Shown here: in pieces, positions 19,050 to 55,130 of the stretch
How the letters are laid out: every line of letters begins with the position of its first letter
Position numbering within the stretch: position 1 is the first letter of the stretch
IMG/VR virus record: IMGVR_UViG_3300020366_000001
Span: 64,001-128,000 of that record
Length of the DNA stretch: 64,000 bases
Source of the DNA: a virus
Lineage: Duplodnaviria; Caudoviricetes
Reading direction: 5' to 3' (one strand)
The notes under the pieces: model-generated
What the model was told of the DNA's origin: nothing
Database searches by the model: none
What the model saw: the letters and a program-made list of their open reading frames with translations, nothing else
Position numbers and translations under genes: made by a program

Positions 19050-19298
19050 TTATAGTTTAGAAACTAAGTCTTTAAGTAATGACTTAATCTCCGAAATTTC
19101 ATCTTGTAATCTTTTAATATCCTCAGTATTGTTAATACTGCGAACAGCTGCTTCCTTCTGACGAAGGTAAGCATCATATGCTTCTTTATTTGTATTCACG
19201 ATGGCACCTGTAGTGCCATCCTTCTTAAGATTTTGGTGACCTGTGACTCTATAGTCACTATTTTTAGCCCACATTTCAAGTATATTAAATGGTTGCAA
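19050..19298 (-). CDS. Conserved small protein downstream of the VrlC-like gene
   Basis: RVTGHQNLKKDGTTGAIVNT...EISEIKSLL pattern; start uncertain. Confidence 0.7.
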   Translation of the reverse strand: MQPFNILEMWAKNSDYRVTGHQNLKKDGTTGAIVNTNKEAYDAYLRQKEAAVRSINNTEDIKRLQDEISEIKSLLKDLVSKL

Positions 19299-51762: not shown

Positions 51763-52086
51763 CTAAACGGTGATTTGTGCAGACCACCAGTCACCAGTAT
51801 ACTCAACTTCACCTTCGGGAGTGTTAATGAACCAATCGAACTTACGTTGGAACACGTTGTAACCACAGAACTCGAAAAGCAACACATTAAGAATTTGCTT
51901 AGTTGTTGCTGTCCAATAACCGCAGTTATTGATGCTGATGCTGTTGTTCGAGATTGCACCAATCAAGTGACCGTGAAAGGTGATAGATGCCGAACCATTA
52001 TCGTGCCACGTCACGCAACGGTTACCCTTAGAGAAGGGACGAAAGTTGCGGATGGCGGTGATCATTTCCTGGTCAACTTTGCGCAT
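51763..52086 (-). CDS. Conserved phage hypothetical protein
   Basis: MRKVDQEMITAI...FHGHLIG...GYWTATTKQILN...VFQRKFDWF. Confidence 0.75.
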   Translation of the reverse strand: MRKVDQEMITAIRNFRPFSKGNRCVTWHDNGSASITFHGHLIGAISNNSISINNCGYWTATTKQILNVLLFEFCGYNVFQRKFDWFINTPEGEVEYTGDWWSAQITV

Positions 52087-52420: not shown

Positions 52421-52479
52421 AATATACACGATCACGGAGGTCACACAACCTAGGGTGTGCCACTTTCCTCACCGACCAC
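52421..52479 (-). promoter_or_regulatory. Early promoter element, copy 8 (no clear ORF of its own)
   Basis: GTGGTCGGT-GAGGA-AAGTGGCAC-N30-TATATT. Confidence 0.65.
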
Positions 52480-52866
52480 GATGGCATCAGGGGGGAGTGT
52501 GCTACCTTGGAAAGCGTCCCATCCATCATCCAATTTATCAGGAGTCTGTGTAATCATATGGTCCAGGGTAAGGTTACCCATTTGGATACGTTCATTAATA
52601 AACTTACCAATGCTGAAATCCTCTCTGTCGATGGTGTCTTCCACATCCTCGACTAGATTGTCATTGTCATCTCTATCTTGCTCACCTTCAAGTAGACCAC
52701 AAAGTTGCATAAAAGCAGACTGAAATTCGTCTAAGTCTTTGCATTTATATGCATATTGTTTGTTTTTATTACTCTTATAGATGATTTTTACATTACTTAG
52801 ATCATAGTCTAACTCCAAGTAGTCAATAGCACCACTAGGGAGTTCTTCGTAAACCTTGTTAGTCAT
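52450..52866 (-). CDS. Acidic KTSC-like protein
   Basis: SGAIDYLELDYD...VKIIY...YAY...SIGKFIN pattern with an acidic insert; TATACT boxes upstream. Confidence 0.55.
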   Translation of the reverse strand: MTNKVYEELPSGAIDYLELDYDLSNVKIIYKSNKNKQYAYKCKDLDEFQSAFMQLCGLLEGEQDRDDNDNLVEDVEDTIDREDFSIGKFINERIQMGNLTLDHMITQTPDKLDDGWDAFQGSTLPPDAIVVGEESGTP

Positions 52867-52941
52867 CTTAATGTCTTTCTATAGTATACAGTATAGCACG
52901 TGGGTGGGAAAATGAAAACCCTTAAAGGTTAAGAAAGTAAG

Positions 52942-53007
52942 TTTTTGACTTTTTTAACTTTTTCATTATTTCGGTTTTCTGACTTTCTTGACTTTTTCAG
53001 TTTCTTG
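52942..53007. repeat. T-rich ~9-bp imperfect tandem repeat (TTTyTGACT)
   Basis: TTTTTGACT, TTTTTAACT, TTTTCATTA, TTTCTGACT, TTCTTGACT, TTTTCAGT in a non-coding stretch. Confidence 0.75.
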
Positions 53008-53076
53008 TGTTAGACTGCAGGCTAAGACCCCCAGTTATCTCAGTATTGTAAGAGATATAGAACACATAAACTATAT

Positions 53077-53129
53077 TTTTCCACATATTTAATAAGTTTT
53101 CCACAGATATGTGGATAACCTGTGGAAAA
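53077..53129. promoter_or_regulatory. Cluster of four DnaA boxes
   Basis: TTTTCCACA at 53077-85 and 53097-105 (+); TGTGGATAA at 53110-18 and TGTGGAAAA at 53121-29 (-); a fifth TGTGGAAAA at 53542-50. Confidence 0.7.
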
Positions 53130-53138
53130 GCATTGGTA

Positions 53139-53288
53139 TCACTGGGAGCGGAGGGTCCGCACATAGGTATTAAAACTGTCTGACATAGTGTAGTAACCAG
53201 ATGCTACTATTAGTTGACCACTAAAGACAATTGCTGTACATATACCCCAGAATATGTAATACATTTGGGACTTAACTTGGTGGTTCAT
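53139..53288 (-). CDS. Small TM protein
   Basis: MNHQVKSQMYYIFWGICTAIVFSGQLIVASGYY; start uncertain. Confidence 0.55.
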   Translation of the reverse strand: MNHQVKSQMYYIFWGICTAIVFSGQLIVASGYYTMSDSFNTYVRTLRSQ

Positions 53289-53463
53289 ACTTAGGTACTG
53301 GGTAGGAGATGATGATTCTTTGGGTGTTGTTACCTTGGGAGTCAAGCATAGACTGGCGATGGAGTGTTGCATCAGGGATAGCATTAAGGATATTGGATAG
53401 GGAGTTATTCAATACCATTTGTTGTTTAGGTGTCATTGTAAGTGTGATAACCAAAGGGACCAA
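53272..53463 (-). CDS. Hypothetical protein
   Basis: 63-aa ORF ending LDSQGNNTQRIIISY...; start uncertain. Confidence 0.5.
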   Translation of the reverse strand: MVPLVITLTMTPKQQMVLNNSLSNILNAIPDATLHRQSMLDSQGNNTQRIIISYPVPKYEPPS

Positions 53464-53659
53464 GTTATGTTTGTCTTCTTAATACCAAGCAATATGATTG
53501 ATGAAGCAAAAAGAAGAGATAGTAAGAATGGATACAATCCTTGTGGAAAACGTTCGTTTTTTGGTGGATCCAACATAAAATAGTATGTGTTAACGGACAA
53601 GACTATGAACTGAAACCCATCACACTTTCGTTATACGTTTTGAATTGAGGTTACAAACA

Positions 53660-54262: not shown

Positions 54263-54451
54263 ATGGCGTGTAAAAATTGCGGTGGCAATATGTCACTGGA
54301 TGAACTAGAAAACCAAATGTTTGCTCATCTCTGGACAAAGACTGATGATGGGTGGACAGTTAAGTGTGAAGATGGTACACTAGTTACATTCGCTTCAGTT
54401 AGTGAAGCAAAAGAATTTATACTAAGTGGTGAGCACCGCGACAATGGATAG
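54263..54451 (+). CDS. Hypothetical protein with N-terminal CxxC
   Basis: 62-aa ORF overlapping the next gene's start. Confidence 0.55.
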   Translation: MACKNCGGNMSLDELENQMFAHLWTKTDDGWTVKCEDGTLVTFASVSEAKEFILSGEHRDNG

Positions 54452-55130
54452 ACAAGGAAAGAAAGTCATCAAACACACTGTTGAGTGTGACACAATGATT
54501 AGAGAGTATCCTAATCACGTACCACCTGAGTTCTGTGATATGTTGATTAAGTATACTGAAGATCTATACAATGGACACATCAATAATGAACCAACAGGGA
54601 CAAATACAGAGGCGTCAAAGTTTGAACGTTCAGATTACTTTTATTGGTTGACTGAAGGTACATCACCTAGTGTACGTAATACACTATTGAGTGGATGGGG
54701 TAAGTTGGCGCAACGTCAATACCTTGAAGAGTTTAGTCAATTAGCATTGAATGATTTCTGGATGAGTGCTGCTAAAGTGCATCGTACTGAACCAGGACAA
54801 GCATTTCATAGTTGGCATTACGATAATGCTGGTTTCTTTGTTGCTGATCGTGAGTTTGTCTTTATCACCTATCTAAATGATGATTTTGAAGGTGGTGAGA
54901 CTGAATTCTTGTATCAAGGTGTTAGAGTGAAACCTGAAAAGGGAAAGACTGTTATCTTCCCCGCAGGTTATACTCATATGCACCGTGGTAATCCTCCCAT
55001 CAAAGGTAACAAATACATTGCAACAACGTGGGCATCAAAATTACCAAGAATGGATCGTGAAACTGGTGACGCTGGTGAAATGAAGTTCATTGGTCCTAGT
55101 GAACAAATGATCAGTTACTATAAAGGTTGA
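54444..55130 (+). CDS. 2OG-Fe(II) oxygenase (prolyl-hydroxylase-like)
   Basis: FHSWHYD, YLNDDFEGGETEF, FPAGYTHMHRG and KYIATTW motifs. Confidence 0.88.
   Translation: MDRQGKKVIKHTVECDTMIREYPNHVPPEFCDMLIKYTEDLYNGHINNEPTGTNTEASKFERSDYFYWLTEGTSPSVRNTLLSGWGKLAQRQYLEEFSQLALNDFWMSAAKVHRTEPGQAFHSWHYDNAGFFVADREFVFITYLNDDFEGGETEFLYQGVRVKPEKGKTVIFPAGYTHMHRGNPPIKGNKYIATTWASKLPRMDRETGDAGEMKFIGPSEQMISYYKG

Follow-up and report, generated by a model that had tools for sequence, protein, structure and literature searches.

The gene-free region at 52867-53138, which holds four DnaA boxes, is our best candidate for the place where this virus starts its replication. We tentatively read it (probability about 0.4) as a cassette resembling the T4 origins oriF, oriG, and oriE, i.e., a promoter-plus-unwinding origin at which the host's DnaA would dock.

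The cassette bears on how replication starts in T4-like cyanophages, from which the MotA/AsiA system, responsible for firing the best-understood origins of T4, is absent. It offers a precise, single-copy candidate in two laboratory models, namely S-PM2 (19.23-19.36 kb) and Syn9 (52.56-52.73 kb). If true, a lytic phage that has a replisome of its own and carries boxes for host DnaA would represent a new kind of host dependence. The cassette could also explain a coupling of infection to the host cell cycle or to light, which is of importance when cyanobacterial mortality in the ocean is modelled. We found no published report of DnaA boxes in T4-like cyanophages in the literature searched, and a prior mention is possible.

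The locus and its DnaA boxes

The window, by which we mean the whole 64-kb stretch of DNA that was analysed, comprises bases 64,001-128,000 of a 187,435-bp genome, which according to its IMG/VR record is complete, has a G+C content of 43%, and carries direct terminal repeats. Its relatives are T4-like cyanophages of Synechococcus and Prochlorococcus (Kyanoviridae). A 107-aa open reading frame (ORF) at 51763-52086 on the minus strand matches the Pfam family Kyano_Gp96 (E = 3e-23), and therefore independently confirms this affiliation. A BLAST comparison of the window with the phage collection gave no match; the named phage relatives discussed below were found through a related locus (L006) and not through the window itself. 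The features of the locus are as follows.

53139-53384, minus strand: small gene on the upstream side (phrog_2000), ending with its stop codon next to the box array
53121-53129, minus strand: DnaA box TTTTCCACA, exact match, 9 nt past the stop of the upstream gene
53110-53118, minus strand: DnaA box TTATCCACA (the E. coli R1/R4 consensus), exact match, with a 2-nt spacer to the 53121 box
53097-53105, plus strand: DnaA box TTTTCCACA, exact match, reading TGTGGAAAA on the gene strand and pointing at the AT-rich block
53077-53085, plus strand: DnaA box TTTTCCACA, exact match, within AT-rich module 2 of the relatives
53044-53096: AT-rich, easily melted block, candidate unwinding element (modules 2 and 3, being CTATRKTTWWTTTAACMATTT and ATAGAACAC on the plus strand)
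53010-53032, plus strand: conserved block TTAGACTGCAGGCTAAGACCCCC, containing the TAGACT of the backward promoter-like element
52988-53032, plus strand: backward promoter-like element from a consensus scan (TTGACT at 52988-52993, 17 nt, TAGACT at 53011-53016)
52941-53007: strand-asymmetric A/T-tract array, with T prevailing on the plus strand and A on the gene strand, flanked by the two divergent promoter-like elements
52890-52918, minus strand: promoter-like element (sigma-70 type) belonging to the downstream gene (TTTTCA, 17 nt, TATACT; a TG precedes the -10)
52450-52866, minus strand: downstream gene, a small protein of 138 aa with no assigned function (phrog_4357, T4-GC 805 family)
53542-53550, minus strand: DnaA box TTTTCCACA, exact match, inside a 55-aa ORF without a family match

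The gap runs from the ATG at 52866 to the stop at 53139, both belonging to minus-strand ORFs. The first-pass annotation described it as a gene-free stretch of about 270 bp with four packed DnaA boxes. Indeed, 52867-53138 holds no supported gene, and every box lies at the place, on the strand, and at the spacing reported (20 bp between the 53077 and 53097 boxes, 11 bp between those at 53110 and 53121). The sole ORF over the boxes (52997-53164, 55 aa) was rejected as a gene; it is not conserved, because changes between 2- and 3-nt spacers among the relatives shift its frame. Small ORFs have also been annotated across the cassette in Syn9 (gp86 and gp87, L157:978-1298) and Syn1 (Syn1_073 and 074, L149:2483-2769). 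These are likewise unlikely to be genes, judging from the same 2- or 3-nt spacers, which would shift any reading frame. For the downstream gene, a suspected resemblance to KTSC-domain proteins was dropped, as no such Pfam match was found.

Exact matches to TTWTCCACA number five in the window (1.9 expected), all of them accounted for by the four array boxes and the box at 53542. The whole 187,435-bp genome holds ten, of which five fall inside 475 bp and four inside 53 bp (53077-53129). No second cluster of DnaA boxes was found in the 187-kb genome, even when one mismatch was allowed. Under a Poisson model, the chance of three further hits inside 53 bp is about 5e-10 per hit and about 5e-9 over the ten hits. 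The genome-wide count that had been proposed as a check thus shows one cluster only (P ~5e-9) and no similar ones elsewhere. The five exact TTWTCCACA sites conform to the 9-mer consensus of a DnaA box (TTWTNCACA; cyanobacterial form TTTTCCACA), and they show clustering and conservation beyond chance with a constraint that matches DnaA specificity.

The box at 53542, also part of the earlier description, is present as an exact match some 50-100 bp from a switch of coding strand. None of the 12 related loci described below has a corresponding box, and the one at 53542 is therefore lineage-specific or due to chance, the chance of a background box within 500 bp of the cluster being about 3%. At the switch itself (53600/53645), roughly 500 bp from the cassette, the minus-strand small genes end and plus-strand genes start, among them a phrog_665 ORF and a 2OG-Fe(II) oxygenase (54426-55130).

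Using the downstream protein as a query, we retrieved 12 related IMG/VR loci (63-78% identity), and in all 12 the gene is preceded, at a distance of 250-300 bp, by three or four exact boxes. The syntenic cluster in related cyanomyoviruses that the first-pass annotation had suggested looking for is thus found at the same place in 12/12 related contigs. In two related contigs (83 and 88 kb), the cluster contains all the exact boxes present. Furthermore, the array occurs in named isolates of at least five Kyanoviridae genera: Syn1 and S-RIM44 (Vellamovirus), S-CAM3 (Charybdisvirus), S-RIM32 (Bristolvirus), S-PM2 (Nodensvirus, 19231-19264), and Syn9 (Ormenosvirus, 52565-52597), as well as S-BM3. 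The freshwater phage DSL-LC03 has seven exact boxes within a 606-bp gap. Overall, the number of boxes among relatives ranges from two to eight, with two to four in most phages, usually at 11-12-bp spacing. The orientation of the 53097 box is the same in 19/19 distinct array contexts collected, and an inverted box at the position homologous to 53121 is shared by L006-type contigs, S-PM2, Syn9, S-CAM3, and S-RIM32. Boxes were seen in phages isolated on Synechococcus and were missing from Prochlorococcus phages, in a small sample partly picked by the box search itself, from which we claim no host bias. Tandem DnaA-box arrays in unannotated DNA were also seen in Microviridae, the Clostridium phages phiCD119 and CDMH1, Escherichia phage P483, and a Xenohaliotis phage.

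Among eight distinct arrays from one subgroup, 0/32 fixed box positions vary, compared with 7/8 spacer positions (p = 4e-7) and 17/33 flank positions (p = 9e-7). The spacers alternate between 2 and 3 nt among relatives, and the only changes within the boxes are A/T swaps at the third position (W), where DnaA is degenerate. A second subgroup of arrays shows the same pattern. Because the boxes sit at the same position in every related locus retrieved, with change only in the spacers and at W, the data support genuine DnaA-type sites under selection and not a product of chance. For a purely computational inference, the link to DnaA appears unusually strong: the signature of selection is clean, and only the position that DnaA tolerates drifts. 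Some turnover of boxes is apparent as well. The 53077 box aligns over AAATGGTTAAAAAAACATAG of the relatives, the corresponding stretch of this window being AAATATGTGGAAAAATATAG (53071-53090), and it appears to have been gained within the AT-rich module by a few substitutions.

As for the protein that would read these sites, TTTTCCACA is a cyanobacterial DnaA box that binds DnaA in vitro for Cyanothece (PMC4674748), which agrees with the initial view that this form is typical of cyanobacteria. Among 301 cyanobacterial genomes sampled, 36 hold triple head-to-tail arrays with an 11-12-bp period. In the two of these that have the array and dnaN on one contig, the distance from the array to the downstream dnaN is 300-350 bp. 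In the phage genome, no DnaA DNA-binding domain (domain IV) and no dnaA were found. Since the phage has no such domain of its own, a reader from the host is implied, and we expect this to be the host's DnaA.

A conserved cassette beside the boxes

The boxes form one end of a larger conserved cassette, whose modules emerged when 13 diverse copies were aligned. Along the gene strand, the boxes come first and are followed by AAATGKTWAAAWAAAYATA, GTGTTCTAT, a variable segment able to form an inverted repeat, GGTCTTAGCNCGCANTCTA, and (A)TTGTCAA. Beyond these lie about 100 bp of A-tracts and then the sigma-70-type promoter of the next gene. Seen from the plus strand, a sigma-70-type promoter-like element thus runs against the direction of the genes, followed by some 30-90 bp of AT-rich DNA and then by two to four boxes. 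In this window, the variable segment between modules 3 and 4 holds the inverted repeat TATCTC...GAGATA (53034-53056); the relatives have other stems at the equivalent place, some with G-U pairs on the gene strand, and automated folding of the alignment missed the inverted repeat. Modules 2 and 3 were also considered as a gene-strand promoter or a T4 late promoter and were rejected as such, the alignment showing no consistent -35/-10 or TATAAATA.

The backward promoter-like element is formed on the opposite strand by the last two modules (GGTCTTAGCNCGCANTCTA and (A)TTGTCAA). It consists of TTGAC[A/T/G], exactly 17 nt, and then TAAGAC, TAAGCC, or TAGACT, and is aimed at the boxes. This form is kept, while the sequence of the spacer varies, in 12 relatives (L001, L003, L006, L133, Syn1, S-PM2, S-BM3, S-RIM44, S-CAM3, S-RIM32, S-RSM4, and P-HM2). 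In DSL-LC03 and P-RSM6, TTGACA is retained 17 nt ahead of different hexamers (TAGGGC and GACAAT), and in Syn9 the -35 is degenerate. The commonest -10 hexamer, TAAGAC, does not have the near-invariant final T, and the element may therefore be a weak promoter or something else.

Between this element and the boxes lies the AT-rich block, the sequence of which is conserved across genera. By nearest-neighbour free energy, 53044-53093 is the second least stable 50-mer among the ~187,000 windows of the genome, and it thus has the character of the easily unwound element found in T4 oriF and oriG. The equivalent 30-mer of S-PM2 ranks in the top 0.007% of least stable sequences, and the equivalent 50-mer of Syn9 in the top 0.3%.

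On the far side of the backward promoter-like element, the first-pass annotation had noticed T-rich repeats of about 9 bp. The run itself is real (plus strand, ~52941-53007); the period was misjudged, being 8-8.5 bp. On the gene strand, the array is 73% A+T, with 51% A versus 23% T, and it is this property and not the sequence that is kept in L001, L003, L006, Syn1, and S-PM2. The proposal that the repeats act as unwinding element or iterons did not hold up, as they lie 70-190 bp from the boxes, between divergent promoter-like elements, and are free to vary in sequence; A-tract or UP-like DNA is the better description of them. The promoter of the downstream gene has stronger forms at the same place in relatives (TTGACT-17-TATAAT in L006 and TTGACA-17-TATACT in L001). 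Between the cassette and the -10 of that promoter, several phages have a dyad GTGACA-N10-TGTCAC (Syn1 at L149:2625-2650, L307, L309, L305, and L306).

A model of the cassette built from sequence without the boxes (R1) finds exactly one match per genome, with E-values from 1e-4 to 5e-20. It also matches S-RSM4, P-HM2, and P-RSM6, where the cassette comes without a box cluster. It detected no cassette in P-SSM2 or P-SSM4, and the cassette is thus not universal. Two of the phages without a cluster carry other repeats at the spot of the boxes: S-RSM4 an inverted TTCTCAATA and P-HM2 a tandem ATTTCATAGT x2. In detail, the S-RSM4 pair is TTCTCAATA / TATTGAGAA (L305, record 140.26-140.32 kb), the P-HM2 tandem lies at 35.55-35.60 kb of its record (L306), and the TTCTCAATA motif recurs inside the cassette of DSL-LC03 (L150:2560-2620). 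These repeats suggest that other DNA-binding proteins may replace DnaA. Because the cassette persists without a box cluster and with other repeats at the same spot, the DnaA array is apparently an exchangeable add-on to a promoter-plus-AT-rich core.

The genes behind the cassette differ as well. A gene of the phrog_4357 family follows it in six phages, including L006, S-RSM4, Syn1, S-PM2, and P-HM2, whereas unrelated genes follow it in four (Syn9, S-BM3, DSL-LC03, and P-RSM6); it is therefore not merely the promoter of the downstream gene. Nor does it look like an RNA. The locus matches no Rfam family, RNAalifold gives an energy of ~0 on both strands for ten diverse copies, and no tRNA was found at the locus here or in S-PM2, Syn9, or Syn1. 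The cassette would therefore act as DNA. The RefSeq record of S-PM2 (NC_006820, 18.5-19.3 kb, L158) places six tRNA features over protein-coding genes and the box array; these look misplaced, as ARAGORN finds no tRNA there.

Possible roles: replication origin, transcription control, or decoy

How might such a cassette work as an origin? Host DnaA would bind the array early in infection. Starting at the backward promoter, the RNA polymerase of the host would run into the unwinding element, and its transcript, remaining hybridised there as an R-loop, could serve as a primer for the T4-type replisome. An oligomer of DnaA just past the unwinding element would be a dispensable helper, which might halt the polymerase, keep the strands apart, or adjust the time of firing to the replication state of the host. 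Promoter and unwinding element would form the core, and the accessory would be exchangeable, because phages without boxes carry other repeats at the same spot. A further step, which we consider doubtful, is that a lytic T4-like phage recruits host DnaA to its own origin as a checkpoint, coupling the start of synthesis to the replication or energy (light) state of the host; the docking module would then be exchangeable, with different lineages plugging different sensors into the same core.

Several points count against an origin. T4-type replisomes need no DnaA, the polarity of the boxes is the reverse of that in bacterial origins, there is no GC-skew turn, and the cassette was undetected in P-SSM2 and P-SSM4. 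Moreover, intergenic DNA that is AT-rich, bent, and bound by proteins could also be just the control region of an ordinary promoter. Cyanomyoviruses are described as having a T4 replisome and no MotA/Asi, with unmapped origins; for Syn9, a single theta origin is known as a computational prediction only (PMC2984593). A gp59-like helicase loader is annotated in Syn9 and P-HM2, and the gp59 Pfam model gave no match in the source genome, a result that is uninformative because the model also missed all controls.

The strongest rival is DnaA-dependent control or insulation of transcription with no role in replication, itself somewhat unlikely and ranked nearly as likely as an origin. The array marks the 3' end of one early transcription unit and the outermost upstream limit of the promoter region that follows, and DnaA bound there would be a roadblock or regulator. 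It might stop read-through from upstream, or cut the backward transcript short of an antisense run into the upstream genes; the activity of the divergent early promoters could also be adjusted in this way to the status of host DnaA (replication, energy, light). The position of the array suits such a role: in this phage it starts 9 nt past the upstream stop, and in relatives it directly follows the upstream gene, whichever gene that is. Two divergent promoter-like elements flank the A-tract array, and the boxes are swapped for other repeated motifs in S-RSM4 and P-HM2, as would be the case for swappable regulator sites. DnaA is known to repress, activate, and block transcription in E. coli and B. 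subtilis and to stimulate lambda pR, thus giving precedents for this kind of control. On the other hand, the boxes lie 200-300 bp from the promoter of the downstream gene, and the cassette persists beside different downstream genes, so it is not simply the promoter of that gene. Transcription control also leaves unexplained why the block adjoining the boxes is so unstable and why the cassette is present in single copy among dozens of early promoters.

Much less probable is a decoy in the manner of datA, whereby the boxes of the multiplying phage genome would soak up host DnaA, stop host initiation, and spare nucleotides and replication factors for the phage. Perfect, high-affinity boxes in a phage without dnaA are what a decoy would call for, and a box number that ranges from two to eight, with boxes dispensable in some relatives, befits an optional add-on. 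A sponge, however, needs no fixed place or direction, whereas the array is found at a single site per genome, invariably next to one and the same AT-rich module and in one orientation; this fixed orientation and position argue against a pure DnaA sponge. In addition, most phages have only two to four boxes, and T4-like cyanophages degrade the host DNA anyway. Finally, it is very improbable that the reader is a non-DnaA protein, phage-encoded or another host factor, sharing the TGTGGAWAA specificity: the unrelated repeats at the same position in other phages must be read by some other protein, but here the motif equals the DnaA consensus at 9/9 positions in both accepted variants, variation among relatives is limited to where DnaA is degenerate, the spacing equals that of the cyanobacterial chromosomal arrays beside dnaN, and the phage has no DnaA-like DNA-binding domain.

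Comparison with known origins and DnaA-box clusters

The first-pass annotation had labelled the locus oriC/datA-like, a label that is not supported: the box polarity is reversed with respect to the bacterial unwinding system (BUS), there is no GC-skew turn, and the T-rich repeats do not adjoin the boxes. The GC-skew inflection it had looked to was absent, with the cumulative skew making no turn at the element in the source genome, Syn9, or S-PM2; GC and AT skew in these three are monotonic and dominated by transcription, and hence uninformative.

With cyanobacterial oriC, the phage array shares the box sequence TTTTCCACA, the head-to-tail arrangement at 11-12 bp, and an AT-rich neighbour (PMC4674748, PMC8287927). 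Like a BUS, it has a tandem pair of boxes with a spacer of at most 3 nt (53110-53129, 2 nt; two or three boxes with 2-3 nt in relatives). The search rule for a basal unwinding system places the AT-rich region 5' of TGTGGAWAA (PMC8287927), whereas in all phage copies the AT-rich block is 3' of TGTGGAAAA, and the inverted boxes, when present, face inward. DnaA-trios with an AT-rich region within about 16 nt on the correct side (5' of TGTGGATAA) were not found, the correct-side trios being sporadic, chance-level NAN runs, and the locus was thus rejected as a BUS on polarity. The cyanobacterial origin-like loci that we fetched have outward-facing arrays, with AT-rich DNA and TAG-trios 5' of TGTGGAWAA, and 10-14 boxes versus two to four in the phage. 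Phage arrays point inward or toward the upstream gene, with the AT-rich block on the wrong side, and have no consistent DnaA-trio run, dnaA/dnaN neighbour, or GC-skew turn; the flanking genes encode small proteins. Because the polarity of the boxes is reversed, DnaA probably does not melt the block in the manner of a host oriC. The four origin-like loci L298-L301, from cyanobacterial chromosomes of 2.2-3.2 Mb, have 10-12 TTATCCACA-type boxes, arranged as a triple tandem array followed by five or six inverted ones. Their box block is flanked by a TAG-trio run and AT-rich DNA on one side and by AT-rich DNA alone on the other, and no dnaN was found within the 1-kb stretches fetched.

The datA locus of E. 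coli and the DnaA-box clusters of B. subtilis are, like the phage array, tight, high-affinity clusters outside the chromosomal origin. datA works with IHF and promotes the hydrolysis of DnaA-ATP. The phage has the cluster of boxes, but its position and orientation beside the conserved cassette are invariant, and titration needs no such thing.

The T4 origins oriF (uvsY), oriG (gene 34), and oriE are among the known systems closest to the cassette. Both serve or would serve a T4-type replisome and combine a promoter, in the cassette a candidate one, with an A+T-rich, easily unwound element within ~100 bp (PMC3016281). T4 origins lie near strand switches, as does the cassette, which has a local switch of the coding strand nearby. 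An early promoter is also required by T4 oriE, which contains 12-nt repeats at even intervals (PMC3016281); the cassette has a candidate early (sigma-70-type) promoter and evenly spaced direct repeats of 11-12 nt. The MotA-dependent middle-mode promoter of oriF and oriG is absent, as the -35 is sigma-70-like and cyanomyoviruses have no motA/asi (PMC2984593). Furthermore, the repeats of the cassette are host DnaA boxes, which occur in no T4 origin, there is one cassette per genome versus several T4 origins, and R-loop and origin activity are candidate properties of the cassette. A persistent R-loop, and a plasmid with the element that replicates autonomously when the cell is infected, are the experimental criteria for an origin of the oriF/oriG type (PMC3016281).

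Replicons that use host DnaA as an accessory form the last point of comparison. P1 oriR, F, pSC101, and RK2 have, like the phage, DnaA boxes beside an AT-rich region on a mobile replicon, and in these as well as in pBR322 and lambda, DnaA is a helper and not the sole initiator. pBR322, with a DnaA box beside an RNA-primed origin, and lambda, with its DnaA-stimulated pR, even combine DnaA with transcription at the origin. In the phage, neither an initiator gene nor iterons to go with one were identified. All of these replicons are plasmids or temperate phages copied by the replisome of their host, whereas here the boxes are carried by a strictly lytic, T4-like phage with its own polymerase.
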